Source: Myxococcota bacterium (GTDB taxonomy: Bacteria; Myxococcota; B64-G9). Taken from it: a DNA stretch of 64,000 nucleotides. Every line of letters begins with the position of its first letter. Position 1 is the stretch's first letter. Below are positions 9,878 to 28,163 of the stretch, piece by piece. Where the stretch lies: positions 157 through 64,156 of the forward strand of contig JBFFBT010000001.1 in NCBI GenBank assembly GCA_041560255.1, read 5' to 3'. The notes below the pieces were generated by a model. It was not told the DNA's origin and made no database searches. It saw only the letters and a list, made by a program, of their open reading frames with translations. The translations under genes were made by a program, and so were the position numbers.

Positions 9878-10116
9878 TCGTCACCTCCTTGGCCTATTCG
9901 GCCAATTTGCACGTTGGGGTTGTGTTTCAAAGTTCAACCGTTTGAACGACTTATGAAGCCACTTCATCGGTACCTCTTACTGCCACCCTCTTTTGGGAAA
10001 CCCATGATCCCTCTCTTTGCAGGCGAGCTAAGTTACTCAGCAGTAAAGAAATATGTCAAGGTGAAAATTTAGATGGTGACGATAAATGGATTTGATGGTT
10101 ATTTGGTGGACTGTGG
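9878..10116 (-). promoter_or_regulatory. aprBA leader/promoter region with GTTCAAccgtTTGAAC palindrome (about 9933-9948)
   Basis: 240-bp non-coding region upstream of aprB, downstream of the LysR gene. Contains a 6-4-6 palindrome and AT-rich stretches. Promoter elements were not resolved. Confidence 0.35.
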
Positions 10117-11061: not shown

Positions 11062-11495
11062 GCATCCGGTTTCGTATACCGGCGGATTAAATCGGTCGCT
11101 CATCAAAGTTATCTATAAGGAGCCACCAAAATAGTTTATACATAACTGCCATAATTTAATGAGTTGTCAAGGAATTTCGGAATCAATTGTAAAAAAGACG
11201 TCTTTTTTTTAAAATATATTTAAATGTTTTTCATTAATATAATTACGACAGAACGGCATTTTTATGAATTCATGAATGTTCTTTCCCCTCGATCTGTGCT
11301 CTTTCGGGACATATCAATTTGGTTTATCCCTATGATATAAATTTTATCTTTGACATCGACCTCTTTAAATGGAATAGATTTGTGCTCACAGCGAGGCCCG
11401 TATATTTGAATTATAAAAAGTGCTTATTTATCAAAGAGTTGCAGTAAACCTTGTTTGTGAAGTCTCATCAAATTGCAGCGGCGAAAGGAGCTATC
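11062..11495. promoter_or_regulatory. AT-rich divergent promoter region between LysR gene and dsrA
   Basis: About 430 bp of low-GC non-coding sequence (runs of A/T, TTTAAATGTTTTTCATTAATATAATTA) lies between divergent genes. It is the expected location of the dsrABD promoter and of LysR autoregulation sites. Confidence 0.5.
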
Positions 11496-12677
11496 ATGGT
11501 CAAGTTGAGAGAAACACCCAAAGTGGATGAATTGCTAAAAGGTCCATGGCCGAGCTTCGTGAAGGAGATTAAAAAAAGTGCGGTATCGAAACCAGCTGCG
11601 AACGATTTGCTCGGCGTGCTGGAACGCTCCTACACTGAAAGAATCGGCCACTGGAAACACGGCGGTATCGTGGGGGTCATGGGATATGGCGGAGGAGTTA
11701 TCGGGCGGTACAACGATCTCCCCGAAGAGTTCCCGGACGTAGCCCATTTTCATACCATCCGAGTCAATCAACCCGCCGGTTGGTTCTACACTTCCGATAC
11801 CATCCGCAAAGTATGCGATATTTGGGATAAGTATGGTTCGGGCATCACCAATATGCATGGATCCACCGGAGATATGGTGCTTTTGGGATGCAATACGGAT
11901 GCCTTGGAGCCGATCTTTTCGGAGCTGACCGCCATCGGATACGACTTGGGCGGATCGGGTTCGGACTTGCGGACCCCCAGCTGTTGCTGTGGCGAGGCCA
12001 GATGCGAGTGGGCATGTTATGACACCATGGCGCTGACCCACGAATTGACGATGCATTTTCAGGATGAGCTCCACCGGCCGGCTTTTCCGTATAAATACAA
12101 AATCAAATCCGCAGGTTGTCCCAACGACTGTGTGGCCTCCATTGCGCGGGCGGATATGTCGATTATCGGAACCTGGCGTGACGGCATCCAGATGGACCAA
12201 GCGGAAGTCGCGAAATACGCATCGGCCGGCGCGTTTGACATGCAGAAGGATGTTGTCGATCGTTGCCCGACCAAGTGCATGAGCTGGGACGGTAAAAAGC
12301 TTGCCATTGACAACGAGAATTGTGTCAAATGTATGCATTGTATCAATGTCATGCCCAAGGCGCTCGCTCCCGGAAAAGACCGCGGTGCAGCGATCCTCAT
12401 CGGAGCCAAGGCTCCCATCATCGGTGGTGCTTTGTTGTCTTCGGTCGTCGTGCCGTTTTTGAAGATCGAAGAGCCTTATGAGGATGTCAAGGAGCTGTGT
12501 GAGGCCATCTGGGATCTTTGGGGTGAGCACGGTAAAAATCGTGAGCGTGTGGGTGAGTTTATTCAGCGCATCGGCATGGGGAACTTCCTCGAGCAAATCG
12601 GCCTGGAGCCGATTCCCGAGATGGTTGTGCATCCTCGCACCAATCCATATATTTTCTTTGAACTCGGAGAGGAATAA
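11496..12677 (+). CDS. dsrA: dissimilatory sulfite reductase alpha subunit
   Basis: [22 protein letters not shown], siroheme/FeS Cys motifs ([20 protein letters not shown]), and the ferredoxin insert [12 protein letters not shown]. Strong SD AAAGGAGCTATC before the ATG at 11496. Confidence 0.92.
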
Positions 12678-12725
12678 CAGAATCGTCATTGAGTAAAACG
12701 ACTCGAATAAACGGAGGATATTCAC

Positions 12726-13808
12726 ATGCCAGTCGCGAAAGACAGAAAAACCGATATCGGCCCCCCTCATTATGAAAATTTCTTGCCGCCGGTCATTAAA
12801 AAGAATTACGGCAAGTGGAAGTACCACGAGATTGTCAAGCCCGGCGTGTTGATGCATGTCGGTGAGTCGGGTGACAAGCTTTGGTCCGTAAGGGCCGCTA
12901 CCCCCAGGCTTGCCAGCATTGAAACCCTGCGTCTTTTTGCGGACATCGCAGATGAGTTTGCAGACGGCTACATGCGCTGGACCAGCCGCAACAATATTGA
13001 GTTTTTGATCTCTGACGGGTCCAAGGTCGATCCGTGTATCGCCAAGCTGAAAAAAGAAGGTTATCCGGTCGGTGGAATCGGTCCGTCCATTACCAACATC
13101 GTGCATACCCAAGGATGGGTTCATTGTCACTCGGCCGCCACCGATGCTTCCGGTGTGGTCAAGGCCATCATGGATGACTTGTTCCCCTATTTCGAGGACA
13201 TGAAACTCCCTGGAAAGCTCCGGATCGCTTTTGCCTGTTGTCTGAATATGTGCGGTGCGGTGCATTGTTCGGACATCGCGGTATTGGGCGTACATCGAAG
13301 GGCTCCCGATATCAAACATGATCTCATGGCGAAGCAGTGCGAGATTCCTTCTACTGTCGCTGCATGTCCGACCGGCGCGATCCGGCCCAAGACAATAGAC
13401 GGGCATCAATCCGTCGAGGTTATTCAAGAGCAGTGCATGTATTGCGCCAACTGCTATACCGTATGTCCGGCCATGACCCTCAACGATCCCAATACGGACG
13501 GAATATCGATTTGGGTGGGTGGCAAGGTCAGCCAGGCACGTCACGAGCCCATGTTCTCCAAGTTGGCTATTCCTTTTATCCCCAACAATCCTCCCCGCTG
13601 GCCCGAAGTGGTCACGGCGGTCAAGAAGATTGTCGAAGTGTATGCCGCCAACGCGCGCCCATTCGAGCGCATGGGTGAATGGATCGAGCGGGTAGGTTGG
13701 CCGAAGTTCTTCGAGCTGACCGATATTCCGTTTACAAAGTATCATATTGATGACTTCACGCATGCAGGAGAGACGTTCAAACGTTCCATCCATTTCCGGC
13801 AGCGGTAG
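12726..13808 (+). CDS. dsrB: dissimilatory sulfite reductase beta subunit
   Basis: [57 protein letters not shown] align closely with DsrB. Confidence 0.92.
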
Positions 13809-13817
13809 GAGAAGGTT

Positions 13818-14051
13818 ATGGAAAGTGTCGAAAAAGTAGCCGAAGCGATGTACCAGATGGTCAAGGAATATCATGGCAAGAAAAACCTCAAGGCTCTCGA
13901 CCTCACCAAAGCCATGATCGAGAAATACGGAGAGGACAACTGCGATAAAAAGTTGTGTAAGCAGGCCATCCGGCAGTTGATCGATTCCGGGCGTTGTACG
14001 TATTCGTATGTTGGTGGAAGCTATATCGTTCTTCCGCCGGACAGCAAGTAA
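13818..14051 (+). CDS. dsrD: DsrD (small winged-helix protein of reductive dsr operons)
   Basis: 77 aa, sited immediately after dsrB. Carries the conserved C-terminal YSY..GG motif (CTYSYVGGSYIVLPP). Confidence 0.85.
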   Translation: MESVEKVAEAMYQMVKEYHGKKNLKALDLTKAMIEKYGEDNCDKKLCKQAIRQLIDSGRCTYSYVGGSYIVLPPDSK

Positions 14052-14064
14052 CGACATAAGTCAT

Positions 14065-14106
14065 CCCGGGGAGGATTACATTTCGAAGATTGTACTCCTC
14101 CCCGGG
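14065..14106 (+). terminator. GC-rich hairpin downstream of dsrD (candidate intra-operon attenuator/terminator)
   Basis: Perfect 11-bp inverted repeat cccggggagga ... tcctccccggg with a 20-nt loop, 14 nt after the dsrD stop. No clear U-tract. Confidence 0.4.
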
Positions 14107-14228
14107 AATTATCATGTAAGAAAAGAACGCGCCGATCTTTTACTCCGGATGGGAGTGGACGGGCTTATCATAAATATAATAATTCGTTTGATGTATGTGA
14201 AGCATTTGGCCGCGAAAGGTGGATTAGC

Positions 14229-15911
14229 ATGGCGCTACTGAAAAAAAAGGCAAGTAAACCTCTAGTGGTAAGAGGGACCGGAGGAGGGGGTGGATCGGTA
14301 TCTTCTCTCCGACCCAACCAGGTCATGAAGGCGGTTCCTTGTGTAACAAACTGTCCCAGCGGCAATCAGATTCGATTGTGGGTCGGTACGATCGCCCAAA
14401 GGGACAAAGCCGGGCTCGGCGAGGAAGAAGCCTACCAGCGTGCCTGGCAGATATTGGTCTCGACCAACCCATTCCCGGCAGTCATGGGCCGGGTGTGCCC
14501 CCATCCGTGTGAGCCGAATTGCAACCGGGAAGCCAAAGACGGGGCCGTAGCCATCAATGCGGTTGAGCGTTTCATCGGGGATTGGGCCATCGAAAAAAAG
14601 CTGTCTTTGAGCAAGCTGCCCGATGTCGAGCCGAAATCCGACTCCATCGGAGTGATCGGGGCAGGACCCGCGGGGCTTTCTTTCGCGTATCAGATGGCGC
14701 GGCGGGGTTATCCGGTTACAGTGTATGAAAAAACCAGCAAGGCCGGCGGAATGTTGTTGTGGGGTATCCCGTTCTACCGCCTGCCGGAAGCTGTGTTGGA
14801 GGCCGAAATTCGGCGTATCCTCGACCTGGGCGTGGAGCTGAAACTGAACACGACGGTGGGCAAGGATATCAAAGTTGCCGATCTCAAAGCCAAGCATAAG
14901 CTGCTTTTCCTCGGGATTGGCGCCGACAAGGGTAGACTCATGCGCATTCCGGGTGAGGAAGGCGGCAATGTATGGACCGGCACGGATTATCTTTTCAGGG
15001 TCAACAACGGCGAAAAGGTGGATGTGGGCAAGCAGGTAGTGGTTATCGGAGGAGGCGACACGGCCATTGACGCCGCGCGCGCGGCTCGCAGAGCCGGGGC
15101 CGAGGTGACCATACTCTATCGTCGTACCCGGGATGAAATGCCCGCCATCGACAGTGAGATCGAAGACGCACTAAAAGAAAAAGTGAAAATCGAGTACCTG
15201 GCGGCTCCCTTGGAAGTGAAACGCTCGGACGGTAAGGTCGCGGCTCTGGTGGTGCAGAAAATGGAGCTCGGAGAACCGGATTCGTCCGGTAGGCGCAGGC
15301 CTGTACCGATTGAAGGCTCCACCTACGAGGTGGCTGCCGATACGATCGTTGCGGCGATTTCACAGGAGCCGAATTGGGATCCGTTGGAAGGTTTACGGCC
15401 CGATGAAAAGTGGCTCAAGGCGGATAAGCATGGCAAGGTGCGTGATGGTTTGTATACGGGTGGAGATGCGTTGACCCTGGGTCTTGCGACCATCGCGATC
15501 GGTCAGGGCAGAGCCGCCGCCGAGGCTGCGCACGCCGAATTGCAAGGTCAGCAGCCGTCGCGCAAGCCCGAGCTTCCGGTCATTACCAAAGATAAGATGC
15601 GTTTGGATCTTTATGATCCCAAAGAGAGAACCAAAAGAGCACACCGGCCGGCCGAGGAGTGGCTTTCCAAACCCAATGACGAAATCGATTTGGGTATCGA
15701 CAACCAGCAGTTTTTGGAAGAAGTCGGGCGTTGTTTCTCTTGCGGCCTGTGTTTTGGGTGTGAACGTTGTTGGATGTTTTGCACGCCGTCCTGTTTCAAA
15801 AAAGTGGATGGCGCGGGTCCGGGAAATTATTACACCATCAAGTTGGATACCTGTGATGGATGTAAAAAGTGCGCGGACGAATGTCCCTGCGGTTTTTTAG
15901 AAATGGTGTAA
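14229..15911 (+). CDS. dsrL: DsrL-like NAD(P)H:acceptor oxidoreductase (GltD-family iron-sulfur flavoprotein with C-terminal 2x[4Fe-4S] ferredoxin domain)
   Basis: N-terminal GltD-type Cys clusters (CVTNCPSGN, CPHPCEPNC), FAD motif VIGAGPAGLSFAY, NAD(P) motif VVVIGGGDTAIDAAR, and a C-terminal CFSCGLCFGCERC ... CDGCKKCADECPC. This domain order matches DsrL and not NfnB/SudA. Good SD. Confidence 0.6.
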   Translation: MALLKKKASKPLVVRGTGGGGGSVSSLRPNQVMKAVPCVTNCPSGNQIRLWVGTIAQRDKAGLGEEEAYQRAWQILVSTNPFPAVMGRVCPHPCEPNCNREAKDGAVAINAVERFIGDWAIEKKLSLSKLPDVEPKSDSIGVIGAGPAGLSFAYQMARRGYPVTVYEKTSKAGGMLLWGIPFYRLPEAVLEAEIRRILDLGVELKLNTTVGKDIKVADLKAKHKLLFLGIGADKGRLMRIPGEEGGNVWTGTDYLFRVNNGEKVDVGKQVVVIGGGDTAIDAARAARRAGAEVTILYRRTRDEMPAIDSEIEDALKEKVKIEYLAAPLEVKRSDGKVAALVVQKMELGEPDSSGRRRPVPIEGSTYEVAADTIVAAISQEPNWDPLEGLRPDEKWLKADKHGKVRDGLYTGGDALTLGLATIAIGQGRAAAEAAHAELQGQQPSRKPELPVITKDKMRLDLYDPKERTKRAHRPAEEWLSKPNDEIDLGIDNQQFLEEVGRCFSCGLCFGCERCWMFCTPSCFKKVDGAGPGNYYTIKLDTCDGCKKCADECPCGFLEMV

Positions 15912-15923
15912 CCATCGGCTTTT

Positions 15924-18020
15924 TTGGGATTGGCGGGCGCATTGCCTAGAGTGGTCATTGCTGCTCTTGCCGGAGACGCCGGCAAGACGTTGGTTAGCCT
16001 GGGTTTGGTGCGGGCTTGGCACAACCGGGGTCAAAAGGTGGCTCCCTATAAGAAGGGACCGGACTATATTGACGCAGCCTGGTTGGGGTCGGCCGCCCAA
16101 TGCCCGGCGTATAACTTGGACAGTTTCATGATGTCCGAGCAAGCCATCTTGGGTTCACTTCAAAGAGCGGAAAAAAAAGCCGCCATTACCGTCATAGAAG
16201 GTAATCGGGGCTTGTTCGATGGGCTGGATGCACAAGGATCGCATTCTACTGCTCAGTTGGCCAAGTTGACCAAAACGCCGCTCGTATTGGTTGTCAATGC
16301 CGCCAAATCCACTCGTACGATTGCCGCATTGGCATTGGGATGCAAATCCATGGATCCCGAGCTTGACATCGCAGGCGTCATCATCAACAACTTGGCGACC
16401 AGGAGACAAGAAGAGATCATTCGGACAAGTTTGCGGGATGCAACCGGCCTGGAAGTGGTCGGATGCATTCCCAAGCTCACGGATCAAAGGCTCTGGAGCC
16501 GCCATTTGGGACTGCTGACCCATTCGGAGCATCCTACTTCGGTTGAAGTACTCGAGCGGTTGGCCGGGATTGCCGAACGCTACTTGGATTTGTCTCAGAT
16601 CCTCAAAGTCGCCCAGGCGGCTCCCGCGCTGTCCGGTATGAATACGCACATGCAGGACGAGCCTACCCAAAGGGATAGCGCTCATGCAGATACGAGTGGG
16701 CTCAAAAGGGTTCGCATCGCGGTGTTGAAGGATCCGGCTTTTTCTTTTTATTATCCTGAAAACCTCGAACAACTCGGCAAACAGGGCGCCGAGCTGGTGT
16801 ATACATCGCCGCTTTCCGACAAGGGATTTCCGGATGTACATGCCGTGTATGCGGGTGGTGGTTTTCCGGAAGTGTATGCCGCAGCCCTTTCGGCCAACCG
16901 GACGTACCGAACCGATCTGAGCGATAGAATCCGCCAGGGGCTGCCTGTATGGGCAGAGTGCGGTGGGTTGATGTACTTGTCCAAATCGTTGGTGGATGCG
17001 GGGGTTGTCTTTCCCATGGTAGGGGCTCTGGGTGTGGTCTGCGAGCAGACGCCCAAACCCAAAGGTCACGGATATGTCAAGCTTCGGGTCGATGGAGAGA
17101 ATCCGTTTTTCCCTGCCGGAACCGAGGTGAAAGGCCACGAGTTTCACTATTCGTTCATACGGGATGGACTCGAAAAAGCCGATACGGCGTTTTTGGTCGA
17201 ACGGGGAGTCGGCTTGGGAAACGGCCGGGATGGTATCGTTGCCGGTAATGTGTTGGCCACCTATACCCATGTTCACGCGCTGGGATTGCCCGAGTGGAGC
17301 CGGGCTCTGGTGGACGCGGCCGAAGGCCGGGGCTGCCTCGAGCAATTCGTAAAGGCGGCATCCGGATCGGCCTTTGGGAAGAGACGCTCCGTGCCCCGGG
17401 CAACCGGACTTACCGAGCATCGCCTCGAGAGGCTGCGAAGCAGTATGGCTCAGAGCGCGGACTTGATTGCCAAGTCCGAAAGAGTACGGTTCCCCTACAC
17501 GGGACCGAAGCTCATTGCGCCGGACGAGGAAGGCGGACCGAGAAATCTGCGCGAGCGAATCGAACGTTTGGTGGAAAAGAATGACGTGGATGGTTTGCGT
17601 GGATTGGTGGCCCGGCAAGCTCGGGCGGTTCGGTATCTGGTGGGGTTTTCATATCAGCGGGATGACGACAAAAGAAAAACAGCGGTCGAGGCGATTGCTC
17701 TGGCCGGCGGTTACCATCCCGATCTGGTGAAAAATATCATCCGCCGTTTGGTATGGGCTATGAACGACGAATCCGGCACCAACGCGCAGACGGCGCCGCA
17801 AGTGCTTCGGGCGGTGTCCGAGAAACATCCTGAGCTTTTGTTGCCGATGGTTCCAGATTTGGTGAGATTATGTGACGACGACAATCTGCGGCCGGGACTT
17901 TTATCTACATTAAAAAACATACAAGACAGTTTCCCCGGCCGGGTTGACGATCAAGTTGGAAATGTGTTGAATCATGATGTGCCAAAAGGAGTGAGCCGTG
18001 AAGCCGGCGATCAAATATAG
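15924..18020 (+). CDS. dsrN: cobyrinic acid a,c-diamide synthase-like siroheme amidase (DsrN) with about 230-aa C-terminal extension of unknown function
   Basis: The CbiA/CobB N-terminal P-loop region (IAALAGDAGKTLVSLGL) and the glutamine amidotransferase domain occupy about residues 1-460. A further roughly 230 aa follow with no recognised family. The start is ambiguous (TTG 15924 or GTG 15951). Confidence 0.7.
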   Translation: MGLAGALPRVVIAALAGDAGKTLVSLGLVRAWHNRGQKVAPYKKGPDYIDAAWLGSAAQCPAYNLDSFMMSEQAILGSLQRAEKKAAITVIEGNRGLFDGLDAQGSHSTAQLAKLTKTPLVLVVNAAKSTRTIAALALGCKSMDPELDIAGVIINNLATRRQEEIIRTSLRDATGLEVVGCIPKLTDQRLWSRHLGLLTHSEHPTSVEVLERLAGIAERYLDLSQILKVAQAAPALSGMNTHMQDEPTQRDSAHADTSGLKRVRIAVLKDPAFSFYYPENLEQLGKQGAELVYTSPLSDKGFPDVHAVYAGGGFPEVYAAALSANRTYRTDLSDRIRQGLPVWAECGGLMYLSKSLVDAGVVFPMVGALGVVCEQTPKPKGHGYVKLRVDGENPFFPAGTEVKGHEFHYSFIRDGLEKADTAFLVERGVGLGNGRDGIVAGNVLATYTHVHALGLPEWSRALVDAAEGRGCLEQFVKAASGSAFGKRRSVPRATGLTEHRLERLRSSMAQSADLIAKSERVRFPYTGPKLIAPDEEGGPRNLRERIERLVEKNDVDGLRGLVARQARAVRYLVGFSYQRDDDKRKTAVEAIALAGGYHPDLVKNIIRRLVWAMNDESGTNAQTAPQVLRAVSEKHPELLLPMVPDLVRLCDDDNLRPGLLSTLKNIQDSFPGRVDDQVGNVLNHDVPKGVSREAGDQI

Positions 18021-18564
18021 TCCTGAAAAAATCAAAGAATTACGCGGTAAAGTAGACGCCGAACCAAATTCGGTCGATGCGCACAACCACCTGGGCCTGG
18101 CTCTCTATCGAAACGGAGCTCTCAAAGAAGCCGCCAAGCTTCTCAGGCGGGCGGTGGAGTTGGACGCGGATTGCGCGGAGGCCTGGGTCAATCTGGGTGG
18201 TATCTTATTGTCTGCCTGGGATTTTCAGGGCTGTGTCGACGCCAATGCCAAAGCCGCCGATCTTCGGCCCGATCTGATGCAGGCGCATTATAACCGGGGG
18301 CTTGGATATATGTACTTGGGTGATGCGGGCAATATGGTTACATGCTTCGAACGGGTGCTTGATCTCGATCCCAAAAACCCTGGTGGTCATTATCATTTAG
18401 CGGTAGCTTTACTTGCGGTCGGCGACTGCGCTTCGGCTCGTGAAAGCCTTGATCGTGCCATGCAGCTGGGTTTCAACCCCGAGCCCGATTTTATCAAAGC
18501 GTTGGAGAAGCATAAAAACAGACAAGATGGTTCAGCGACCATCCCAACAACACACCAATCTTAA
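17998..18564 (+). CDS. TPR-repeat protein
   Basis: TPR-like helical repeats (AHNHLGLALYRNGALKEAAKLLRRAVELD ... AHYNRGLGYMYLGD). GTG start with a good SD. Overlaps the dsrN end by 23 nt. Confidence 0.6.
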   Translation: MKPAIKYSPEKIKELRGKVDAEPNSVDAHNHLGLALYRNGALKEAAKLLRRAVELDADCAEAWVNLGGILLSAWDFQGCVDANAKAADLRPDLMQAHYNRGLGYMYLGDAGNMVTCFERVLDLDPKNPGGHYHLAVALLAVGDCASARESLDRAMQLGFNPEPDFIKALEKHKNRQDGSATIPTTHQS

Positions 18565-18578
18565 GAGGAGGAAGTACT

Positions 18579-18896
18579 ATGGCGCATATAGACGTTGAGG
18601 GTGTACAGATTGAAATCGACGAGGACGGATTCATTCAAGAGCCGGATAAATGGAATCAGGGTGTTGCGGCGGCTTTGGGAAAGGGCGAAGGCGTCGATAA
18701 CTTGACCGACGACCATTGGAAAGTGGTAAATTTCCTTCGCGAGTATTATCTTGAGTTCGGTGTGGCTCCCATGATCCGGAAACTATGCAAATCCACCGGA
18801 TTTAAGCTCAATCAGATTTACGAGCTGTTTCCTTCCGGCCCTGCCAAAGGCGCCTGCAAAGTGGCAGGTTTGCCCAAGCCGACCGGTTGCGTATAA
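18579..18896 (+). CDS. dsrC: DsrC (TusE-like sulfur carrier / sulfite reductase gamma subunit)
   Basis: 105 aa. C-terminal arm ...CKVAGLPKPTGCV carries the two conserved Cys of DsrC. Strong SD AAGAGGAGGAAG. Confidence 0.9.
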   Translation: MAHIDVEGVQIEIDEDGFIQEPDKWNQGVAAALGKGEGVDNLTDDHWKVVNFLREYYLEFGVAPMIRKLCKSTGFKLNQIYELFPSGPAKGACKVAGLPKPTGCV

Positions 18897-19017
18897 CGGC
18901 GATTGGCTTGATCCGGGACGGGATCCAATCCAATACGGGTTTTCATGGGTATAGCCCGATGGAGTATTGATCCAAAGCCGCGGTGTCTTTCGGTTTTTGA
19001 CCGAAAAGGAGCGTGGT

Positions 19018-19575: not shown

Positions 19576-19596
19576 CGATCAGCGAGGTTAGGTCAT

Positions 19597-20589: not shown

Positions 20590-20591
20590 CC

Positions 20592-22277: not shown

Positions 22278-22653
22278 TGCTGGCAAAGTGATCCTAGGAC
22301 TGGGCATTTTTCTGGCTTTGGTCACGTTTCCCATTTGGTTTACCGTGGCCACGGGTAACTACGGTTATACTCCCGAGCTTCAAATGCCCGAAGGCTATAC
22401 ACAATGTGTCGAGTCAAAAGAGTACATGACCTCCTGGCACATGGACTTGCTCGATCAATGGCGGGATGAAGTGGTTCGCGAGGGCAAGCGTTACTACGTT
22501 TCGAAAACGTATGGCGATAAGCACGAGATGAGCCTGACCAAAAACTGCATGAAATGTCACAACGACAAGGCGCAATTTTGTGACAAATGCCACAATTATT
22601 TGGGTGTCGAGCCGTATTGTTGGGATTGCCACATCGAGCCCGAAGGGAACTGA
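22270..22653 (+). CDS. dsrJ: DsrJ (periplasmic triheme cytochrome c)
   Basis: Three CxxCH motifs (CMKCH, CDKCH, CWDCH) and an N-terminal TM/signal anchor. Start at ATG 22270 with SD GGAGG. The longer ORF-track start at 22234 overlaps dsrK. Confidence 0.8.
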   Translation: MHDAGKVILGLGIFLALVTFPIWFTVATGNYGYTPELQMPEGYTQCVESKEYMTSWHMDLLDQWRDEVVREGKRYYVSKTYGDKHEMSLTKNCMKCHNDKAQFCDKCHNYLGVEPYCWDCHIEPEGN

Positions 22654-22656
22654 GCC

Positions 22657-23448
22657 ATGGACGACAGCAGAAGAAACTTTCTCAAGGTTGCGGGTTGCTC
22701 ATTGTTGGGGGCTGCCTGGGGTGTGCCTATAGTCCGTGCAGTGAGTAAGAGTTTTACAACCGAGGCGGCGCCCGAAGCATTACGTGCCAAACAATGGGCC
22801 ATGGTGGTGGATTTGAAAAGCTGTGAGCGTGATGACATACGGGCCGCTGCGGCCGAGGCGTGCCACCGTGAGCACAATGTGCCGTCCATCAAAGACGTCG
22901 AAGACGAGGTCAAATGGATCTGGAGTGAGGACTACGCGCATACCTTCCCCACCGAGATGCATACGTATACAGACGTTGCGTTGAGAAAAAAGCCGGTATT
23001 GGTTCTGTGCAATCATTGCGAACGGCCGCCTTGCGTGCGGGTATGTCCAACCCAGGCGACCTGGAGACGAGCGGACGGAATCGTGATGATGGATATGCAT
23101 CGCTGCATTGGATGCCGATATTGCATGGTGGCTTGCCCGTATGGATCCCGCAGCTTCAACTTCAAAGAGCCCTGGAGCACAGAAGAGCGAAAAAAATTGA
23201 GCTCGGATTTTCCAACTCGGTGCAAAGGGGTAGTGGAAAAGTGCAATTTCTGCGCGGAACGGCTGGCTCTTGGAAAACCTCCTGCGTGCGTCGAAGCGGT
23301 CAGACAATTGCCGGACGCCGAAGAAGCTCTCGTTTTCGGCGATTTGGGCGATTCGAGCTCGCAGGTATCCATGTTGCTGCGTACCCGCCACGGCATCCGA
23401 AGAAAACCCAACCTGGGCACCGGTCCCCAGGTGTACTATCTGGTGTGA
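22657..23448 (+). CDS. dsrO: DsrO (periplasmic 4x[4Fe-4S] ferredoxin-like subunit, Tat signal)
   Basis: RRNFLKVAG Tat motif. Multiple CxxCxxCxxxCP motifs (CNHCERPPCVRVCP, CIGCRYCMVACP, CNFCAERL). Confidence 0.85.
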   Translation: MDDSRRNFLKVAGCSLLGAAWGVPIVRAVSKSFTTEAAPEALRAKQWAMVVDLKSCERDDIRAAAAEACHREHNVPSIKDVEDEVKWIWSEDYAHTFPTEMHTYTDVALRKKPVLVLCNHCERPPCVRVCPTQATWRRADGIVMMDMHRCIGCRYCMVACPYGSRSFNFKEPWSTEERKKLSSDFPTRCKGVVEKCNFCAERLALGKPPACVEAVRQLPDAEEALVFGDLGDSSSQVSMLLRTRHGIRRKPNLGTGPQVYYLV

Positions 23449-23455
23449 GGTCATC

Positions 23456-24613
23456 ATGTTGGAGAATGCACTGCGTGGTGGTAAACGATATTGGAGCCTG
23501 CTGGCTCTTTGGTCGGCCCTGATTGTCGTGGGCGTTGTCGCATATTTGGTGCAGTACAATCGCGGGTTGACTGTCACCGGATTGAGCCGGGATGTGCCCT
23601 GGGGTTTTTATATCGCCCAGTTGACATTTCTGGTGGGAGTGGCGGCGTCGGCGGTCATGGTGGTGCTGCCGTATTATCTGCATAACTTCAAAGCCTTCGG
23701 AAAAATGGTCATCTTGGGAGAGTTTTTGGCCATCTCGGCGGTGGTCATGTGCATGTTGTTTGTATTCGTCGATATGGGTCAACCCATGCGGGTGCTCAAT
23801 GTCGTGTTGCATCCAACCCTCAACTCATTGATGTTTTGGGACTTGACGGTGCTTTCCGGTTACCTGCTTCTCAATCTCGTCATAGCTTGGGTGACCTTCG
23901 GCGCCGAGAGAAAATCGATAGCTCCTCCCAAGTGGATCAAGCCTATCATCATATTATCCATTCCTTGGGCGGTAAGCATTCATACCGTGACGGCTTTCTT
24001 GTACTCAGGGTTGGAAGCTCGTCCGTTTTGGATGACCGCCATACTGGCTCCCCGGTTTTTGGCGTCGGCTTTTGCCTCCGGACCCAGCTTGCTCATCATC
24101 CTGGCGCTCATTGTAAGGCGCTACACCAAGTTCGATCCGGGCAAAGAAGCCATTCAGGCCTTGGCCAAGATCGTGACATATGCTATGACGGTGAATATCT
24201 TTTTCGTCATGGTCGAGATGTTTACGGGTTTGTACAGCGATATCCCGGAACACACCCACCATTTTCAGTACCTGTTTTTCGGGCTGCACGGCAAGAACGC
24301 GCTGGTGCCATGGATGTGGACTTCGCAGTTGTTGGCCCTGACGGCAGCCGTTTTGTTGATGTTTCCGGGCGTACGCCGAAATGAAGGTTTCCTGCCGGTG
24401 ATTTGCCTGGCTGTCATTGTCGCCATTTGGATTGAAAAAGGCCTGGGCATGGTCGTCACCGGTTTCATCCCGTCTCCCATGGAGAAAGTCATAGAGTACA
24501 ATCCAACCCTTCTCGAAGGTTTGATTACTGTGGGCGGGTACGGCATCGGATTTTTCATCCTGACCGTGTTGTATAAAATTGCAATATCCATCCGGGAAAA
24601 ACTCGAGCAGTAA
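23456..24613 (+). CDS. dsrP: DsrP (NrfD/PsrC-like integral membrane quinone-interacting subunit)
   Basis: About 10 TM helices. Sits directly after dsrO. The in-frame upstream extension to 23270 lies inside dsrO and is rejected. Confidence 0.8.
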   Translation: MLENALRGGKRYWSLLALWSALIVVGVVAYLVQYNRGLTVTGLSRDVPWGFYIAQLTFLVGVAASAVMVVLPYYLHNFKAFGKMVILGEFLAISAVVMCMLFVFVDMGQPMRVLNVVLHPTLNSLMFWDLTVLSGYLLLNLVIAWVTFGAERKSIAPPKWIKPIIILSIPWAVSIHTVTAFLYSGLEARPFWMTAILAPRFLASAFASGPSLLIILALIVRRYTKFDPGKEAIQALAKIVTYAMTVNIFFVMVEMFTGLYSDIPEHTHHFQYLFFGLHGKNALVPWMWTSQLLALTAAVLLMFPGVRRNEGFLPVICLAVIVAIWIEKGLGMVVTGFIPSPMEKVIEYNPTLLEGLITVGGYGIGFFILTVLYKIAISIREKLEQ

Positions 24614-24662
24614 AAACACCTCCTGTCGGTTTGTACCACACGAAAATTCAGGGAAAGCTATC

Positions 24663-26366
24663 TTGAAAAACGGGGAAAAAAAAGTTGTTATTGTGGGAGC
24701 GTCTGCTGCCGGACTTCGGTGCGCGGCCAGGCTCGTCAGGCTGAACCCCTCTTTCCGGGTAACCGTTGTAGAAAAAAGTGATGTGTATTCTTATGCCGCC
24801 TGCGGTCTTCCGTATGTGTTGTCCGGGGATATCGAAGATATCTTGATGCTACGAAAAAGCAAGGACGGCATGCTGCGAGACAGCGGATACTTCAGCTCGG
24901 TCAAAGGTGTCGAGGTGCTCGCCGGATGGAACGCAACCCGGATCGACAAGCAAAAGAAACAATTGCACATTCAACAACAAACCGATCTTCGCACGCTTGA
25001 CTACGACGGGCTCGTGTTGGCCACCGGAGCGCGGGCCAAACGTCTGCCTGGTTTGCCGGTACATCCGCGGGTTCGTACCTTTCATACGTACGAAGATGTC
25101 CGCCCGTTGACCGAGGATCTGGCCCACGGTCGAATAAAATCAGTAGCCGTCATCGGTGCGGGTCTGGTAGGTCTGGAGCTTACCGAAGCGTTTACGGCCA
25201 TGTGGGGAGCCGAAGTAACCCTGTTGGAGGCCGGCTCGCATCCCTTGCCGTTCAGCGTGGACTGTGAAGTGGGCGGTTTGGTCGGAAAGGTGCTTGCGGA
25301 TCAAGGCGTTGCATGTGTTTTCGATTGCCGGGTCGAGCGTCTCGAGGCTCATGACGGGGGTGTGAGGATCGGTTTACCCACCGGCACGATCGAGGTGGAT
25401 GCCGTGATTGCAGCCTTAGGAGTATCCGCGAATGTGGATTTGGCTGCCGAAGCCGGCATTCGATTGGGCCGAAGCGGTGCGGTTGCGGTGGATTCGGATT
25501 TTCGCACTTCAGAGAACGACATTTGGGCTTGCGGTGATTGCATTGAGCAGGTGCATGCCTTGAGAAAGGATCCGGTTTGTATGCCGCTAGGCTCATTGGC
25601 CAATCGGCAAGGCAGAACCTTGGCCAACCTGCTGTCCGGCAGAAAGGATCGTTTTCCCCCCATCGTGGGTGCGACGGCGGTCAAGATTTTCGATTGGAAT
25701 CTGGCGACAGTTGGAATCAACCGACAGGCGGCCGAGCAAGAAGGCTTACAAACCCGCAGCGCATGGGTGTCTATGCAGGATACTGCCGATTATTGGCCCG
25801 AGGTCAAAAACATATTTATTCAGATGCTTTACTCACCCGAATCCGAAAGGGTGTTGGGAGTGCAGGCAGTGGGTGAAGGCGAGGTCGTAAAGCGCATCGA
25901 CGTGGCTGCTCAATTGTTGGCAAACCAAGCGGTGCTTGAGGATTTTGCCCACATCGAACATGCCTACGCGCCACCCTATGCCCCCGCATTGGAGCCGCTG
26001 GCAGTGGCCGCCATGGCGGCGTTGAACCAGCAAGACGGGGTGGAAGGTTTGTCTCCACTTTGTGACCTGCAAGCGTATGATTTGTTGGATGTCAGGCATG
26101 CATCGGAGGTTGAGAGCATGCCGGTTGGGTCCCAAGCCCCGCCCCTGCACGTGCCCCAACACGAAATCAAAAACCGCATTGCCGAGATTGAAAACGCTCA
26201 TTCTTCGAATGATCGAACCAAACCCTGGATGGTGTTGTGTGCCCGAGGGGCTCGATCGGCCGAAGTTGCGCGTGGACTTGTTGGCAGAGGACTCGAGGCG
26301 TGCTATCTGGGTGGTGGATTGATTTGGCGGCGCTTGGCAAGCAAAGAGTCCGGCGAAGACTCCTAA
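24663..26366 (+). CDS. CoA-disulfide reductase / NAD(P)H persulfide reductase-like flavoprotein fused to C-terminal rhodanese domain
   Basis: Redox-active Cys in SYAACGLPYV, two Rossmann GxGxxG motifs (VVIVGASAAG, VAVIGAGLVG), and a C-terminal rhodanese active-site loop CARGARS. The start is uncertain (TTG 24663 preferred, ATG 24579 overlaps dsrP). Confidence 0.7.
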   Translation: MKNGEKKVVIVGASAAGLRCAARLVRLNPSFRVTVVEKSDVYSYAACGLPYVLSGDIEDILMLRKSKDGMLRDSGYFSSVKGVEVLAGWNATRIDKQKKQLHIQQQTDLRTLDYDGLVLATGARAKRLPGLPVHPRVRTFHTYEDVRPLTEDLAHGRIKSVAVIGAGLVGLELTEAFTAMWGAEVTLLEAGSHPLPFSVDCEVGGLVGKVLADQGVACVFDCRVERLEAHDGGVRIGLPTGTIEVDAVIAALGVSANVDLAAEAGIRLGRSGAVAVDSDFRTSENDIWACGDCIEQVHALRKDPVCMPLGSLANRQGRTLANLLSGRKDRFPPIVGATAVKIFDWNLATVGINRQAAEQEGLQTRSAWVSMQDTADYWPEVKNIFIQMLYSPESERVLGVQAVGEGEVVKRIDVAAQLLANQAVLEDFAHIEHAYAPPYAPALEPLAVAAMAALNQQDGVEGLSPLCDLQAYDLLDVRHASEVESMPVGSQAPPLHVPQHEIKNRIAEIENAHSSNDRTKPWMVLCARGARSAEVARGLVGRGLEACYLGGGLIWRRLASKESGEDS

Positions 26367-26381
26367 AAGACGGGTAAAATC

Positions 26382-28163
26382 ATGTATCCAGTTATGTTGC
26401 AGTTGAAAGGACGCCGCTGCCTGGTGGTGGGTGGAGGAGGCGTCGCGTTGCGTAAGGTGCAAGGGTTGCTCCAAGAAGGCGCGCAAGTGGTGGTGGTATC
26501 GCCGAAGCCGCTCGATACTTTGCTTGCCATGTCGAGTCAGGGTAGGTTGAGGCTCGAACTGCGCACTTATCGTCCCGGCGAGGTGGCGGACTATGTTTTG
26601 GTTTTTGCCGCCACCGACGATCGGGAAGTAAACCAAGCCGTTTATCAAGACGCTGAAGCCCACGGCGTATGGGCCAATGTTGCCGACGATCCTGAGTTGT
26701 GCTCGTTTCATTTGCCTTCGCGGGTGCGCAGGGGCGCTTTGCAGTTGGCTGTCGGCTCAGCCGGGCAGGCTCCGTTCGCCGTAAGAAGAATGCGTCAGAT
26801 GTTGGAACGTAAATTTGGTCCCGAGTGGGCCGAGTGGGCCGATGCGGCCGCCAGGTTTCGAGCTTCGGTCATCAGTGCCGGTCGTCCTCGCGCCGATCAA
26901 GAAGCCATGTACGACGCATTTTTCTCGCAGACCATCGATCCTATGAGTCTCAAGGCGCGTGTGCCCTCGGCGTCTGAAGAAAGAGAGTGGTTGGCTTTGA
27001 CATCCTGTCAATCCGAGTTTGGTGATGATGAGGAAATCTGCCACCAGACCAGCGCATCTCATGACAGTCGGAAAGGATTTGTGTCGTTGGTGGGAGCGGG
27101 TCCGGGAGATCCTGGATTGCTTACGTTGCGGGCTCGACAGAGGTTGATGCGCGCCGATGTGGTGGTGTACGACAATTTGGCTTTGCCGGCGCTGCCGTGT
27201 GATTTGCCGGAAAAAACCGAGCTTCATTGTGTGGGCAAACAGGCCGGTCATCATCCAGTCCCCCAGCACGAAATCAACGCCATGCTGCTTCGGCTTGCAG
27301 ATCAAGGCAAAAGGGTGGTCAGGCTCAAGGGAGGTGACCCGTTTGTGTTCGGTCGGGGAGGCGAAGAAGCCGAGGCTTTGGCCAAGGCGGGTATCGCCTT
27401 TGAAGTGGTGCCGGCGGTGACCGCCGGGGTGGCGGTGCCCAGCTACGCCGGTATCCCCATCACCCACCGGCAGGAAGTGGTCCGAGTGACTTTTGTCACT
27501 GCGCACGAAAGTGAGAAGACCGACGGCCCGCAGGTGCGCTGGGATTTGCTGGGGCAGGATCCCCACGCTACTCTAATAGGCTACATGGGAGTAACCAGCT
27601 TGCCGCAAGTGGTGGAGCGATTGTTGCAGGCCGGCATGGATCCAAATACTCCGGCTGCTATGATTGAAAGGGGCACTACCGCCCACCAACGCTCGGTGAT
27701 ATCCAGTCTGTCCGATCTACCCAATGCGATCAAAAAAGCCGGAATGCGCCCACCGGGACTCTTTGTCATCGGCCCTACCGTCCGGCATGCCGGACGGCTG
27801 GATTGGTATGGCGGCAGACCTCTGGCTGGTCAGCGGCTTGCGATCATGGAGCCGTCCGGAAGCCTGGGCGGGCATCTGGAGGAAAACGGAGCCCAACTGG
27901 TGGAAGTATCCTATCCTTTGAGCCAAGCCGCCCGGGTGGTTATCGGCGCCATGCCTATCACCGGATGCGTGCTTCGGACCGAAAGCGAAGTCGAAGCGCT
28001 CGACGAAGAGCGTATCTCGACGGACTGGGGACCCGATGTCGTGGCATGGTGCCTGAGCAAGGAAGCCGCCGTGCGGGCGCGTGCATTGGGGTGGCCGATC
28101 GTAAAAGAATTTGCTATACTTCCCACACCTGAACAGGTCGTGCTCGCCATGCAATCGGCTTAA
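26382..28163 (+). CDS. multifunctional siroheme synthase (precorrin-2 dehydrogenase/ferrochelatase domain + uroporphyrinogen-III C-methyltransferase + HemD-like C-terminal domain)
   Basis: N-terminal CysG-N/SirC Rossmann (LVVGGGGVALRKVQGLLQEGAQVVVVSP). Central SAM methyltransferase (VGAGPGDPGLLTLRA, GGDPFVFGRGGEE). C-terminal roughly 170 aa is HemD-like. Confidence 0.8.
   Translation: MYPVMLQLKGRRCLVVGGGGVALRKVQGLLQEGAQVVVVSPKPLDTLLAMSSQGRLRLELRTYRPGEVADYVLVFAATDDREVNQAVYQDAEAHGVWANVADDPELCSFHLPSRVRRGALQLAVGSAGQAPFAVRRMRQMLERKFGPEWAEWADAAARFRASVISAGRPRADQEAMYDAFFSQTIDPMSLKARVPSASEEREWLALTSCQSEFGDDEEICHQTSASHDSRKGFVSLVGAGPGDPGLLTLRARQRLMRADVVVYDNLALPALPCDLPEKTELHCVGKQAGHHPVPQHEINAMLLRLADQGKRVVRLKGGDPFVFGRGGEEAEALAKAGIAFEVVPAVTAGVAVPSYAGIPITHRQEVVRVTFVTAHESEKTDGPQVRWDLLGQDPHATLIGYMGVTSLPQVVERLLQAGMDPNTPAAMIERGTTAHQRSVISSLSDLPNAIKKAGMRPPGLFVIGPTVRHAGRLDWYGGRPLAGQRLAIMEPSGSLGGHLEENGAQLVEVSYPLSQAARVVIGAMPITGCVLRTESEVEALDEERISTDWGPDVVAWCLSKEAAVRARALGWPIVKEFAILPTPEQVVLAMQSA

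Follow-up and report, generated by a model that had tools for sequence, protein, structure and literature searches.

Does the long array of dsr genes in the DNA of an uncultured Myxococcota-affiliated bacterium serve the reduction of sulfate, the reduction of other sulfur compounds only, or sulfur oxidation? We addressed this question in a contig stretch of 64,000 nucleotides (hereafter the window). Every gene listed in the original prediction was found, in the order claimed and on the plus strand (Table 1). Fifteen genes follow one another at 11496-28163, encoding DsrA, DsrB, a 77-aa protein at the DsrD position, DsrL, DsrN, a TPR protein, DsrC, DsrT, DsrMKJOP, a CoA-disulfide-reductase/rhodanese (CoADR-rhodanese) fusion and a long CysG; the gaps between them range from -23 to 177 bp, and they are probably co-transcribed. 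The beginning of the array had been placed at 11062, which falls within a divergent LysR gene; the ATG of dsrA is at 11496, just after an AAAGGAG.

The dsr array forms one half of a larger island. The other half, comprising aprBA, qmoABC-like genes and sat, lies upstream on the minus strand (395-9877) in divergent orientation, with the LysR regulator between aprBA and dsrA. The whole sulfate-reduction island spans ~28 kb (395-28163) and consists of two divergent transcription units flanking this regulator. In the presumed promoter/operator region between LysR and dsrA, a promoter scan gave nothing above the shuffle expectation. The signal of a terminator scan was not above background.

Table 1. 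Features of the island, the profile or other support for each, and related loci (L and P numbers) with a counterpart.
Feature	Position	Strand	Support	Counterparts
sat (sulfate adenylyltransferase)	395-1834	-	NF003166 486 bits (cut-off 387); Pfam ATP-sulfurylase, PUA_2	
QmoC-like	1708-2814	-	Pfam Fer4_8 (Fe-S), Nitrate_red_gam (NarI-like membrane domain)	
QmoB-like, HdrA-like flavoprotein, C-terminal MvhD/FlpD domain	2843-5086	-	Pfam FlpD 135 bits, Pyr_redox_2, Fer4; NCBIfam HdrA2-like under cut-off	L001-L009
QmoA-like, HdrA-like flavoprotein	5083-6423	-	NCBIfam HdrA2-like 317 bits, under cut-off	conserved in relatives
CxxCxxCC-domain protein	6342-7151	-	Pfam PF03692 30 bits; between aprA and qmoA	L005, L006, L007, L010
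Conserved 96-aa protein	7162-7452	-		L001, L002, L004, L006, L007, L009, L010
aprA (APS reductase alpha subunit)	7554-9455	-	TIGR02061 906 bits (cut-off 642)	
aprB (APS reductase beta subunit)	9440-9877	-	TIGR02060 210 bits (cut-off 136)	
LysR-family regulator	10117-11106	-	Pfam HTH_1, LysR_substrate; divergent from dsrA	L001-L011, L029, L032, L035, L036 (equivalent position)
Divergent intergenic region, AT-rich, 389 bp	11107-11495	.	presumed promoter and operator	
dsrA, reductive bacterial type	11496-12677	+	TIGR02064 585 bits (cut-off 393)	
dsrB	12726-13808	+	TIGR02066 519 bits (cut-off 342)	
Divergent DsrD-like winged-helix protein, 77 aa	13818-14051	+	position, predicted fold, intermediate homologues	
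dsrL, type 2 (reductive, 2C-like)	14229-15911	+	NF009410 547 bits (cut-off 516)	
dsrN fused to HEAT/ARM-like DVU0298-family domain	15951-18020	+	CobB NF002204 415 bits (cut-off 254); NF045662 50-54 bits (cut-off 75)	fused in L004, L007, P0357, P0370
TPR protein, 188 aa	17998-18564	+	Pfam TPR_11, TPR_2, others; 23-nt overlap with dsrN-HEAT ORF	L001-L011, L015, L029, L032, L035-L040 (equivalent position)
dsrC	18579-18896	+	PF04358 130 bits; TIGR03342 123 bits (cut-off 54)	
dsrT (RsbRD_N-domain protein)	19030-19575	+	PF14361 67 bits; directly upstream of dsrM	position conserved in relatives
dsrM	19597-20589	+	NF038037 529 bits (cut-off 300)	
dsrK	20592-22277	+	NF045796 729 bits (cut-off 400)	
dsrJ (triheme cytochrome c)	22270-22653	+	NF038038 160 bits (cut-off 100)	
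dsrO	22657-23448	+	NF045797 293 bits (cut-off 200)	
dsrP	23456-24613	+	NF045798 461 bits (cut-off 350)	
CoA-disulfide-reductase/rhodanese fusion	24663-26366	+	Npsr/CoAPR-like persulfide reductase candidate	L001, L007, L008, L010
cysG-type siroheme synthase	26382-28163	+	NF007922 442 bits (cut-off 400)	C-terminal extension in L011, L017, L033

Curated equivalog models were passed by Sat, AprA, AprB, DsrA, DsrB, DsrM, DsrK, DsrJ, DsrO, DsrP and CysG. In the NCBIfam search none of the Qmo subunits passed a dedicated family model; their names denote architecture, joined by position for the putative QmoC. The 96-aa protein matched no family in the Pfam and NCBIfam searches, and its copies in related loci, found at the equivalent position, are 48-59% identical. 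The coordinates of sat are those of the ORF, whose real start probably lies further in.

Because sat, aprBA and the qmoABC-like genes lie directly upstream of the dsr array, a complete sulfate-to-sulfide pathway is encoded. We read the region as the dissimilatory sulfate-reduction island of its host, two divergent units around a LysR regulator, with a probability of about 0.7. The sulfate reducer of the original prediction is thereby narrowed to one with the full pathway, and its option of mere sulfur-compound reduction becomes very unlikely. The latter would make the host a reducer of sulfite, thiosulfate, sulfur or organosulfonates only, as is Desulfurella amilsii, with sulfate-activation genes unrelated to the dsr array. 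The organism in which DsrL-2 was characterised does indeed reduce thiosulfate and sulfur (PMC7596348), and the CoADR-rhodanese could serve sulfur or polysulfide reduction, but this is very improbable given that only the LysR gene stands between the sulfate-activation genes and dsrA and that more than ten related contigs share the apr-LysR-dsr junction.

Judged by its sequence, the window DsrAB is of the reductive type. DsrA, in which the CX5C and CX3C motifs are present, shares 59-61% identity with reductive enzymes of known biochemistry (61% with both A. fulgidus 3MM5 and D. vulgaris 2V4J) vs. 48% with the oxidative-type DsrA of locus L028, whose cluster carries dsrEFH and which served as the oxidative reference. 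In a neighbour-joining tree rooted with the DsrB paralogue and including one oxidative-type sequence, all 200 bootstraps placed DsrA among the reductive references; the branching with oxidative-type rDsrAB that had been named beforehand as a refutation of the prediction did not occur.

The neighbouring DsrL is of type 2. Its residues 297-299 are YRR, Arg28 replaces the Cys of the L028 DsrL-1A, the DsrL-1A insertions are absent, and the C-terminus bears two CX2CX2CX3C motifs. According to Loffler et al. 2020 (PMC7596348), the YRR, the Arg and the lack of the DsrL-1A insertions go with NADPH-dependent DsrL-2 accompanying reductive DsrAB. For DsrAB, this type implies that electron input is linked to NAD(P)H, and the YRR motif predicts specificity for NADPH. 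By description, the protein resembles D. amilsii DsrL-2, an NADPH:acceptor oxidoreductase, in its NfnB/GltD-like core, C-terminal two-cluster ferredoxin domain, YRR and short linkers, whereas the window host additionally encodes the sulfate-activation genes. The predicted dsrL gene passed its profile, and its predicted co-occurrence with dsrD was borne out insofar as a gene at the DsrD position stands alongside it.

The identity of that gene required a more indirect argument. The 77-aa protein has no Pfam or NCBIfam match of its own and, as a single sequence or as a profile, does not match PF08679 or the PDB sequences, so that the dsrD call failed the profile searches, one of the outcomes named beforehand as a refutation. 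Its relatives, however, reach PF08679 (27.3 bits for P0244, cut-off 24.2), and the gene is conserved after dsrB in every locus covering that position; its counterpart in the Acidobacteria locus L017 shares 69% identity with it. The AF2 model (pLDDT 92) shows three helices and a beta-hairpin, its fold matches being generic winged helix-turn-helix proteins. An hhalign comparison with a D. vulgaris DsrD sequence gave E 0.0095 over 29 columns. Like D. vulgaris DsrD (1UCR; PF08679; 78 aa), the protein follows dsrB and has a winged-helix fold, and it carries YSYVGGSY (Y-x-x-x-G-[SG]-[ST]) at the site where Desulfobacterota DsrD has YWSSGSTT, but a significant direct sequence match is missing, profiles included. 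Intermediate homologues, predicted fold and position, taken transitively, argue for a divergent DsrD.

It should be kept in mind that organisms with reductive-type DsrAB are capable of sulfide oxidation or disproportionation as well, and that a sequence carries no information on direction. The same genes might work mainly in reverse or in disproportionation, such that the oxidation of sulfide, sulfur or thiosulfate would run via DsrC/DsrMKJOP, DsrAB, AprBA-Qmo and Sat, with DsrL-2 passing electrons to NADP+ and with the rhodanese-containing enzyme and a nearby YeeE/TusA module supplying sulfane sulfur. Among established sulfur oxidisers, too, DsrL-2 is found alongside oxidative DsrAB (Loffler et al. 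2020, PMC7596348), and for Acidobacteria with an equal gene set the same possibility was brought up by Hausmann et al. 2018. A CoADR-rhodanese gene lies within the cluster, and the stretch 44921-47452 encodes a YeeE-like transporter, a cysteine-desulfurase-like protein and a TusA-like protein with an RGLACPEP motif. We nevertheless consider this reading unlikely: DsrA falls among reductive enzymes, dsrB is followed by a DsrD-family gene while DsrD is missing from sulfur oxidisers with oxidative rDsrAB, dsrT is present and dsrEFH were not found within the window, the DsrL Arg substitution is that of DsrL-2 accompanying reductive DsrAB, and, as proposed by Diao et al. (PMC10591310), DsrL-2C beside reductive dsrAB marks a reductive metabolism. 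The Allochromatium-type oxidative cluster dsrABEFHCMKLJOPN, here L028, likewise unites DsrAB, C, MKJOP, L and N within a single array, but it has dsrEFH, lacks dsrD and dsrT, and encodes a type 1A DsrL with two insertions and no YRR; its proteins are only 24-48% identical to those of the window.

DsrC keeps both C-terminal cysteines (tail ...CKVAGLPKPTGCV), and its nearest PDB entries are the Desulfomicrobium and Desulfovibrio DsrC; DsrK has two CX2CX2CX3C motifs and one CCG, and DsrJ three CXXCH motifs. From the established roles of the protein families we infer the following pathway for a sulfate-reducing host. Sat would convert sulfate to APS, and AprBA would reduce APS to sulfite with electrons from the QmoABC-like module. 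Sulfite would be reduced by DsrAB at the siroheme-[4Fe-4S], with a trisulfide formed on the two C-terminal DsrC cysteines; the DsrD-like protein may act as an allosteric activator of DsrAB, and electrons may flow from NADPH via DsrL-2 to DsrAB. DsrMKJOP, with dsrT ahead of it, would then link the quinone pool to reduction of the DsrC trisulfide at DsrK and release of sulfide. The siroheme would be made by CysG and amidated by DsrN.

The dsrN call was confirmed by the CobB model, and the ORF turned out to carry an extra C-terminal domain of the DVU0298 family. The DsrN part, a siroheme a,c-diamide synthase homologue, covers residues ~8-466 and the HEAT/ARM-like domain residues ~546-682 (about 17560-17970) of an ORF of 689-698 aa, whose NF045662 match stays under the cut-off. 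The AF2 model of the added domain is an all-helical solenoid (pLDDT 87) with HEAT/ARM fold matches. This domain and the TPR protein probably serve as scaffolds for cofactor hand-over to DsrAB or for enzyme assembly. In most relatives DsrN and the HEAT-like protein are encoded by separate genes; in seven loci the HEAT-like gene and the end of dsrN, stop included, share 4 bp. The separation, together with a source that is apparently a metagenome-derived contig, its proteins being known from no records other than a 64,610-bp NCBI contig and a Logan run assembly, might suggest that an error of assembly or sequencing produced the fusion, or even made the cluster contiguous. Such an origin is hardly credible, as the fused protein of 689 aa appears in both the NCBI and the Logan record, fusions recur in four further loci, gene order is identical across many independent assemblies, and cluster and window are close in GC content (0.537 and 0.523).

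The persulfide-reductase-like gene predicted after dsrP proved to be a CoADR-rhodanese that aligns over its full length with the solved fusions 6PFZ (E 7e-94), 8A56, 3ICR and 3NTA. It is collinear with Shewanella loihica Npsr (3NTA), Enterococcus CoAPR (8A56) and A. fulgidus NoxA-3 (6PFZ), and, like them, retains both catalytic cysteines (Cys47 in CGLPY, Cys526 in the rhodanese CARGARS). It differs from them in its location within a dsr operon and in being a predicted enzyme that scores under the CoADR equivalog cut-off. Probably, it catalyses the NAD(P)H-dependent reduction of persulfide or polysulfide. The gene is present in some relatives only. CysG has a C-terminal extension of ~125 aa with no Pfam match. 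One MXAN_6577-like neighbour gene in the window lends some support to the Myxococcota affiliation.

The array had been called unusually complete and its electron-input route atypical, which does not hold. Its layout is conserved gene for gene, divergent apr-LysR-dsr junction included, in about 20 public MAG contigs, and this recurrence in independent contigs shows that the order is no chance pattern. According to Neukirchen et al. 2023 (PMC10504309), several bacterial lineages encode DsrABDNCTMKJOP consecutively in a single cluster; the window has the same order in a single array, with dsrT beside dsrM, but with dsrL after dsrD and with extra HEAT-like, TPR and CoADR-rhodanese genes and a cysG at the end. 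The dsrABD-dsrL-2 arrangement was described by Loffler et al. 2020 (PMC7596348) and Diao et al. 2023 (PMC10591310), the latter reporting that Myxococcota MAGs encode the full Dsr set together with dsrD and dsrL-2. There is no difference in kind from these DsrL-2C clusters (Acidobacteriota SbA MAGs, Myxococcota, Kapabacteria and others), in which reductive dsrAB, dsrD and a YRR-bearing dsrL-2 occur with dsrN, dsrC, dsrT and dsrMKJOP, and whose sulfate-reducing members also hold sat, aprBA and qmoABC. Contiguous dsr clusters, dsrABD-dsrL-2 and Dsr-carrying Myxococcota are all already published, and the island is a good example of a known arrangement rather than a discovery. Compared with the DsrL-2C clusters, the clade of the window sometimes has the CoADR-rhodanese after dsrP, DsrN and the HEAT-like domain form one protein in the window, and a pair of HEAT-like and TPR genes is added, always between dsrN and dsrC; this pair is possibly the sole new element.

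The ORF listing and the profile scans clearly showed 15 back-to-back genes on the + strand at 11496-28163, which confirms both the order and the identities of the genes in the dsr array of the original prediction. Its start at 11062 was misplaced: this position falls inside the adjoining divergent gene, and dsrA starts at 11496. Neighbouring genes of the array are spaced by -23 to 177 bp, and a Shine-Dalgarno-like sequence precedes most of the starts. The curated NCBIfam cut-offs were exceeded by DsrA, DsrB, DsrM, DsrK, DsrJ, DsrO, DsrP, CysG and the DsrN part of the dsrN ORF, with all five subunits of DsrMKJOP lying above equivalog cut-offs. DsrJ bears three CXXCH motifs, i.e., three haem c sites; DsrK, for which no sequence relatives were found in the PDB, has one CCG motif and two ferredoxin-type motifs; and the DsrC tail, CKVAGLPKPTGCV, keeps both functional cysteines of the C-terminal arm. 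The DsrN part (NF002204, 415 bits) comprises GATase_3, CbiA and AAA_26 domains, whence a siroheme-amidating role is predicted. An RsbRD_N-type gene lies immediately 5′ of dsrM, and its designation as dsrT relies on PF14361 and on this position rather than on a dedicated DsrT model. A scan of the window for promoters and terminators gave counts within the shuffle expectation, and hence no evidence for operon boundaries. An 840-aa ORF runs antisense to dsrA, dsrB and the DsrD-like gene (11535-14057, - strand); most likely, it is a shadow ORF produced by the strong bias of the coding strand.

Coordinates of the sulfur-metabolism genes and the adjoining regulator gene in the window
Feature	Position	Strand	Match or remark
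sat	395-1834	-	NF003166 486 bits, cut-off 387
aprA	7554-9455	-	TIGR02061 906 bits, cut-off 642
aprB	9440-9877	-	TIGR02060 210 bits, cut-off 136
LysR-family regulator	10117-11106	-	between aprB and dsrA
dsrA	11496-12677	+	TIGR02064 585 bits, cut-off 393
dsrB	12726-13808	+	TIGR02066 519 bits, cut-off 342
77-aa ORF in the DsrD position	13818-14051	+	starts 9 bp after dsrB
dsrL-like	14229-15911	+	NF009410 547 bits
dsrN ORF, 689-698 aa	15951-18020	+	residues 1 to ~466 are DsrN/CobB
TPR protein	17998-18564	+	
dsrC	18579-18896	+	PF04358 130 bits
dsrT-position gene (RsbRD_N protein)	19030-19575	+	PF14361 67 bits; ends 21 bp before dsrM
dsrM, dsrK, dsrJ, dsrO, dsrP	19597-24613	+	529, 729, 160, 293, 461 bits
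CoA-disulfide-reductase-like gene	24663-26366	+	
cysG, 593 aa	26382-28163	+	NF007922 442 bits, cut-off 400
Class-V aminotransferase or cysteine-desulfurase-like gene	44921-46093	-	
TusA-like protein, 71 aa	46115-46330	-	RGLACPEP motif
YeeE/YedE-type 'Sulf_transp' membrane protein	46352-47452	-	

Upstream of the array, Sat, AprA and AprB all scored above equivalog cut-offs, and the minus strand between aprA and sat carries two small conserved genes followed by QmoA-, QmoB- and QmoC-like genes. This Qmo-like set near aprBA consists of two HdrA-like flavoproteins, one of them with an MvhD/FlpD domain, and an Fe-S/NarI-like membrane protein (HdrC/HdrE-like) in the place of QmoC; the names express a fit of architecture, the libraries used containing no Qmo-specific model and two extra genes separating aprA from qmoA. 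Of the extra genes (6342-7452, - strand), one encodes a CxxCxxCC-domain protein and the other a protein of 96 aa, for which no family match was found; the related loci L001-L010 have both genes in the same place. With sat, aprBA and the Qmo-like genes upstream, the whole sulfate-to-sulfide pathway is predicted to be encoded in ~28 kb of the window. The earlier choice between a sulfate reducer, a disproportionator and a sulfur-compound reducer is thereby narrowed to an organism that would at least handle sulfate and APS. A LysR-family gene and an AT-rich spacer of 389 bp part aprB from dsrA. For the regulator, the best-scoring model is 'selenium metabolism-associated LysR', with a score of 160 bits that stays below the cut-off of 250. 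Since its position between apr and dsr is kept in more than 10 related loci, it is a candidate controller of both divergent units.

The DsrA of the window is 61% identical to the reductive enzymes of A. fulgidus (3MM5) and D. vulgaris (2V4J) and 59% identical to that of Desulfomicrobium (2XSJ), vs. 48% for the DsrA of the oxidative-type reference locus L028. Both siroheme-[4Fe-4S] motifs are present, CX5C as CCGEARC (residue 164) and CX3C as CPNDC (residue 208). L028 was the sole oxidative-type reference in a neighbour-joining tree rooted with the DsrB paralogues; in all 200 bootstraps it fell outside the clade that unites the window protein with its relatives and with the three reductive enzymes of known structure. 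The reference cluster has the order dsrAB-dsrEFH-dsrC-MK-L-JOP-N, with DsrE, DsrF and DsrH confirmed by Pfam; no dsrEFH homologue was found within the window. The window DsrC scored 126-128 bits with Desulfovibrio/Desulfomicrobium DsrC vs. 104 bits with that of A. vinosum. Every line of evidence agrees and points to a DsrAB of the reductive bacterial type, as far as the primary structure can tell, so that the reductive assignment withstood the comparison with the oxidative type on which the original prediction had made it depend. L028 itself, a Pseudomonadota MAG locus (JAYZEZ010000004, 1768-13704) bearing a classical oxidative-type dsrABEFHCMKLJOPN cluster with DsrL-1A, was picked up in the DsrL scan at 33% identity.

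The DsrL protein has an NfnB/GltD-like architecture (Fer4_20, Pyr_redox_2 and Fer4_21) with an N-terminal Fe-S part and a C-terminal ferredoxin part for two [4Fe-4S] clusters; its only sequence relatives in the PDB are NfnB-like cores. DsrL-2 proteins are distinguished by the YRR motif for NADP(H) specificity and by the lack of two insertions, each ~30 residues long, that DsrL-1A has; where the host's DsrAB is reductive, they also bear an Arg in place of the fourth Cys that binds the distal N-terminal cluster (Loffler et al. 2020, PMC7596348). In the window protein, YRR is found at residues 297-299 and is absent from the DsrL-1A of L028; in the alignment, both ~30-aa insertions (in the substrate-binding and linker domains) are confined to L028. 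Arg28 (SSLR28P) stands opposite a Cys of L028 (SHKCP), the match to the NfnB numbering being inferred. Given these features and two C-terminal CX2CX2CX3C motifs (residues 508 and 542), the protein is typed by sequence as DsrL-2, of the kind termed 2C by Diao et al. 2023 (PMC10591310), who proposed DsrL-2C beside reductive dsrAB as a marker of reductive metabolism. The D. amilsii DsrL-2 is the only enzyme for which NADPH specificity and the passing of electrons to DsrAB have been demonstrated (PMC7596348).

The gene named dsrD in the original prediction failed as a profile match, which under the refuting condition set there speaks against the name, and held as a position and a fold. The 77-aa ORF gave no Pfam or NCBIfam match (Pfam even at E<=10), so that PF08679 was not recovered, and the solved D. 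vulgaris DsrD (1UCR) was found neither by phmmer against the PDB nor with the homologue profiles A1 and A3 (14 or 40 homologues). It was also missing from the top 50 PDB matches when the AF2 model was searched with Foldseek, which returned generic winged-helix domains. An hhalign comparison with a D. vulgaris DsrD sequence, to which we attach little weight, gave only E 0.35 and E 0.0095. The model itself (pLDDT 92) has three helices and a beta-hairpin (H-H-H-beta-beta), and its best PDB fold matches are winged-helix domains, including Z-alpha. Winged-helix is the fold class reported for DsrD, an allosteric activator of DsrAB (Ferreira et al. 2022). The gene is located directly 3′ of dsrB in all related loci spanning that position, with 49-88% identity. 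PF08679 was matched by 5 of 40 representative homologues from an exhaustive phmmer set, among them P0244 (27.3 bits vs. a gathering threshold of 24.2), although this database protein is linked to the window protein at E 8.5e-4 and 24% identity. The stretch YSYVGGSY sits where the Desulfobacterota DsrD has YWSSGSTT. The copy in the Acidobacteria locus L017 is 69% identical, and the equivalent Acidobacteria protein has been named DsrD (Hausmann et al. 2018). From the conservation next to dsrB, the winged-helix model, the PF08679-matching homologues including P0244 and the YSYVGGSY stretch, we conclude that the ~80-aa winged-helix protein following dsrB is a putative divergent DsrD with a predicted DsrAB-activating role.

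The branch of this protein comprises about 2,000 database clusters. None of the 120 best matches listed carries a Pfam domain, and the source names, where given, are mostly 'hypothetical protein'. Pfam-based annotation thus overlooks this DsrD branch, and generic pipelines would therefore score its hosts as lacking the marker of reductive metabolism. Residues ~46-74 of the DsrD-like protein are also matched, up to 12 times over in repeated stretches, by four very long proteins (P0139, P0231, P0238 and P0241; 991-2461 aa), perhaps only because a repeat unit happens to look like the ...Y-x-Y-x-G-G-S... segment.

Taken together, the gene content is best read as a reductive sulfate-respiration island with an extra NADPH input: NADPH would feed DsrAB through DsrL-2, alongside the membrane route via DsrMKJOP and DsrC. 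In the chief alternative, which is less probable, this gene set works in reverse or in disproportionation; the rhodanese enzyme lends it a little support, as does a sulfur-uptake/trafficking module of three adjacent genes (YeeE/TusA/cysteine-desulfurase-like; 44921-47452, - strand) lying 18 kb downstream of the array. The reductive DsrAB, the DsrD-family gene, dsrT and the Arg-type DsrL-2 favour reduction instead, and so does the absence of dsrEFH from the window. The island provides a clean and complete reference locus for the 'DsrD plus DsrL-2' form of dissimilatory sulfate reduction in a Myxococcota-like lineage that is uncultured. One contig carries ~25 genes, which reach from the activation of sulfate to the supply of siroheme, along with the regulator and the presumed promoter region. 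It may serve for annotation, for the design of DsrABL-2/DsrD expression constructs and for the reading of environmental dsrAB surveys.

The scan of a genome collection with DsrL gave 31 loci, and the closest relatives (63-72% DsrL identity) belong to MAGs labelled Myxococcota, Myxococcales or Deltaproteobacteria. As mapped by tblastn, L001-L010 and L029 share the order dsrA-B-D-L-N-(HEAT)-TPR-C-T-M-K-J-O-P followed by CoADR and/or cysG, several unclassified bacteria have a simpler dsrABDLN-C-T-MKJOP order, and one Acidobacteria MAG has dsrABDL-C-MKJOP-cysG. The upstream qmoBA-aprAB / LysR / dsrA junction is kept in L001-L010, L011, L035 and L036. The HEAT-like protein led to more contigs of the same layout (L032, L033, L035, L036, L038-L040), some labelled Planctomycetota or Acidobacteriota. 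An assembly artefact is unlikely, the same order being present in many independent contigs. Consecutive DsrABDNCTMKJOP clusters are known in several bacterial lineages (Neukirchen et al. 2023, PMC10504309), dsrABD-dsrL-2 arrangements have already been described (Loffler et al. 2020, PMC7596348), and a full Dsr set together with dsrD and dsrL-2 has been reported from Myxococcota MAGs (Diao et al. 2023, PMC10591310). Because related contigs share the order and the literature reports all three elements, the cluster is typical of its clade and not exceptional, and the array can no longer be called 'unusually complete'. In other words, the finding is real and its outline was read correctly, but its class has been described before: the combination of genes, their contiguous layout and the phylum have all appeared in print, and the current understanding is unchanged. 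What remains new is the annotation gap for this DsrD branch and a DsrN-associated pair of HEAT-like and TPR proteins.

The C-terminal part of the dsrN ORF matches NF045662 (DVU0298 family) with 50-54 bits, below the cut-off of 75. Since this model is matched at E<=1e-3 by 44 of 44 aligned homologues, the domain is assigned by sequence to a subfamily related to the DVU0298 family rather than to its passing members; a profile search with the alignment did not reach the Desulfovibrio DVU0298 proteins. The domain is predicted to be an all-helical HEAT/ARM-like solenoid (pLDDT 87) whose fold matches are generic repeat proteins only. In most relatives it is a separate gene of 150-170 aa, and in seven loci there is a 4-bp overlap between its start and the dsrN stop. 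Fusions to DsrN occur in the window, in L004 and L007 and in the database proteins P0357 and P0370; the 689-aa fused product is recorded in NCBI and in one Logan assembly. In most loci a TPR or TPR-like gene follows, L033 and L034 being without it. The 4-bp overlaps and the fusions form a Rosetta-stone pattern, which suggests a physical partnership of the pair with DsrN, possibly as a DsrN-bound scaffold handing siro(haem)amide to DsrAB or chaperoning DsrAB assembly. Cofactor hand-over or DsrAB maturation would thus be a reasonable guess as to the role, and it is a tentative, rather doubtful proposal that the two proteins between dsrN and dsrC are dedicated, undescribed Dsr accessory factors. 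If true, the pair would count as part of the clade's core machinery for reductive Dsr and not of the DsrL route: L038 has the pair without dsrL, and the pair is therefore independent of DsrL. This locus (JGI 3300033148 contig, 1776-12456) has the order dsrABD-N-HEAT-(TPR-like)-C-T-MKJOP. In the Dsr literature examined we found no description of the pair, and for Acidobacteria clusters only unnamed 'syntenic genes of unknown function' are mentioned (Hausmann et al. 2018). A literature mention of DVU0298 was set aside as uninformative, being an apparent locus-tag slip for a CO dehydrogenase gene. Conserved beside dsrN, the pair merits an experimental look.

The CoADR-like protein is matched over residues 3-549 by 6PFZ (E 7e-94) and resembles end to end the CoADR-rhodanese fusions, among them 8A56, a CoA-persulfide reductase, and 3NTA, which is Npsr. 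It has the two catalytic cysteines, Cys47 in CGLPY and Cys526 in CARGARS; the Pfam Rhodanese match is just E 0.088. As only some relatives carry the gene, it is an accessory of the cluster. CysG combines NAD_binding_7 and TP_methylase domains, i.e., precorrin-2 dehydrogenase/ferrochelatase and uroporphyrinogen-III methyltransferase. Its C-terminal extension of ~125 residues (27789-28163, + strand) is kept in L011, L017 and L033 at 43-45% identity and gave no Pfam match at E<=10; by the look of its sequence alone, it is loosely like one half of uroporphyrinogen-III synthase, and we do not claim a HemD-like half-domain. Directly after cysG (28220-30619, + strand) lies the gene for a secreted-looking protein of 799 aa. 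Its N-terminus is rich in cysteine and MXAN_6577-like (NF041328, 115 bits), and it has C-type-lectin/Link-like segments in several copies; the protein is unrelated to sulfur metabolism and fits a myxobacterial host.
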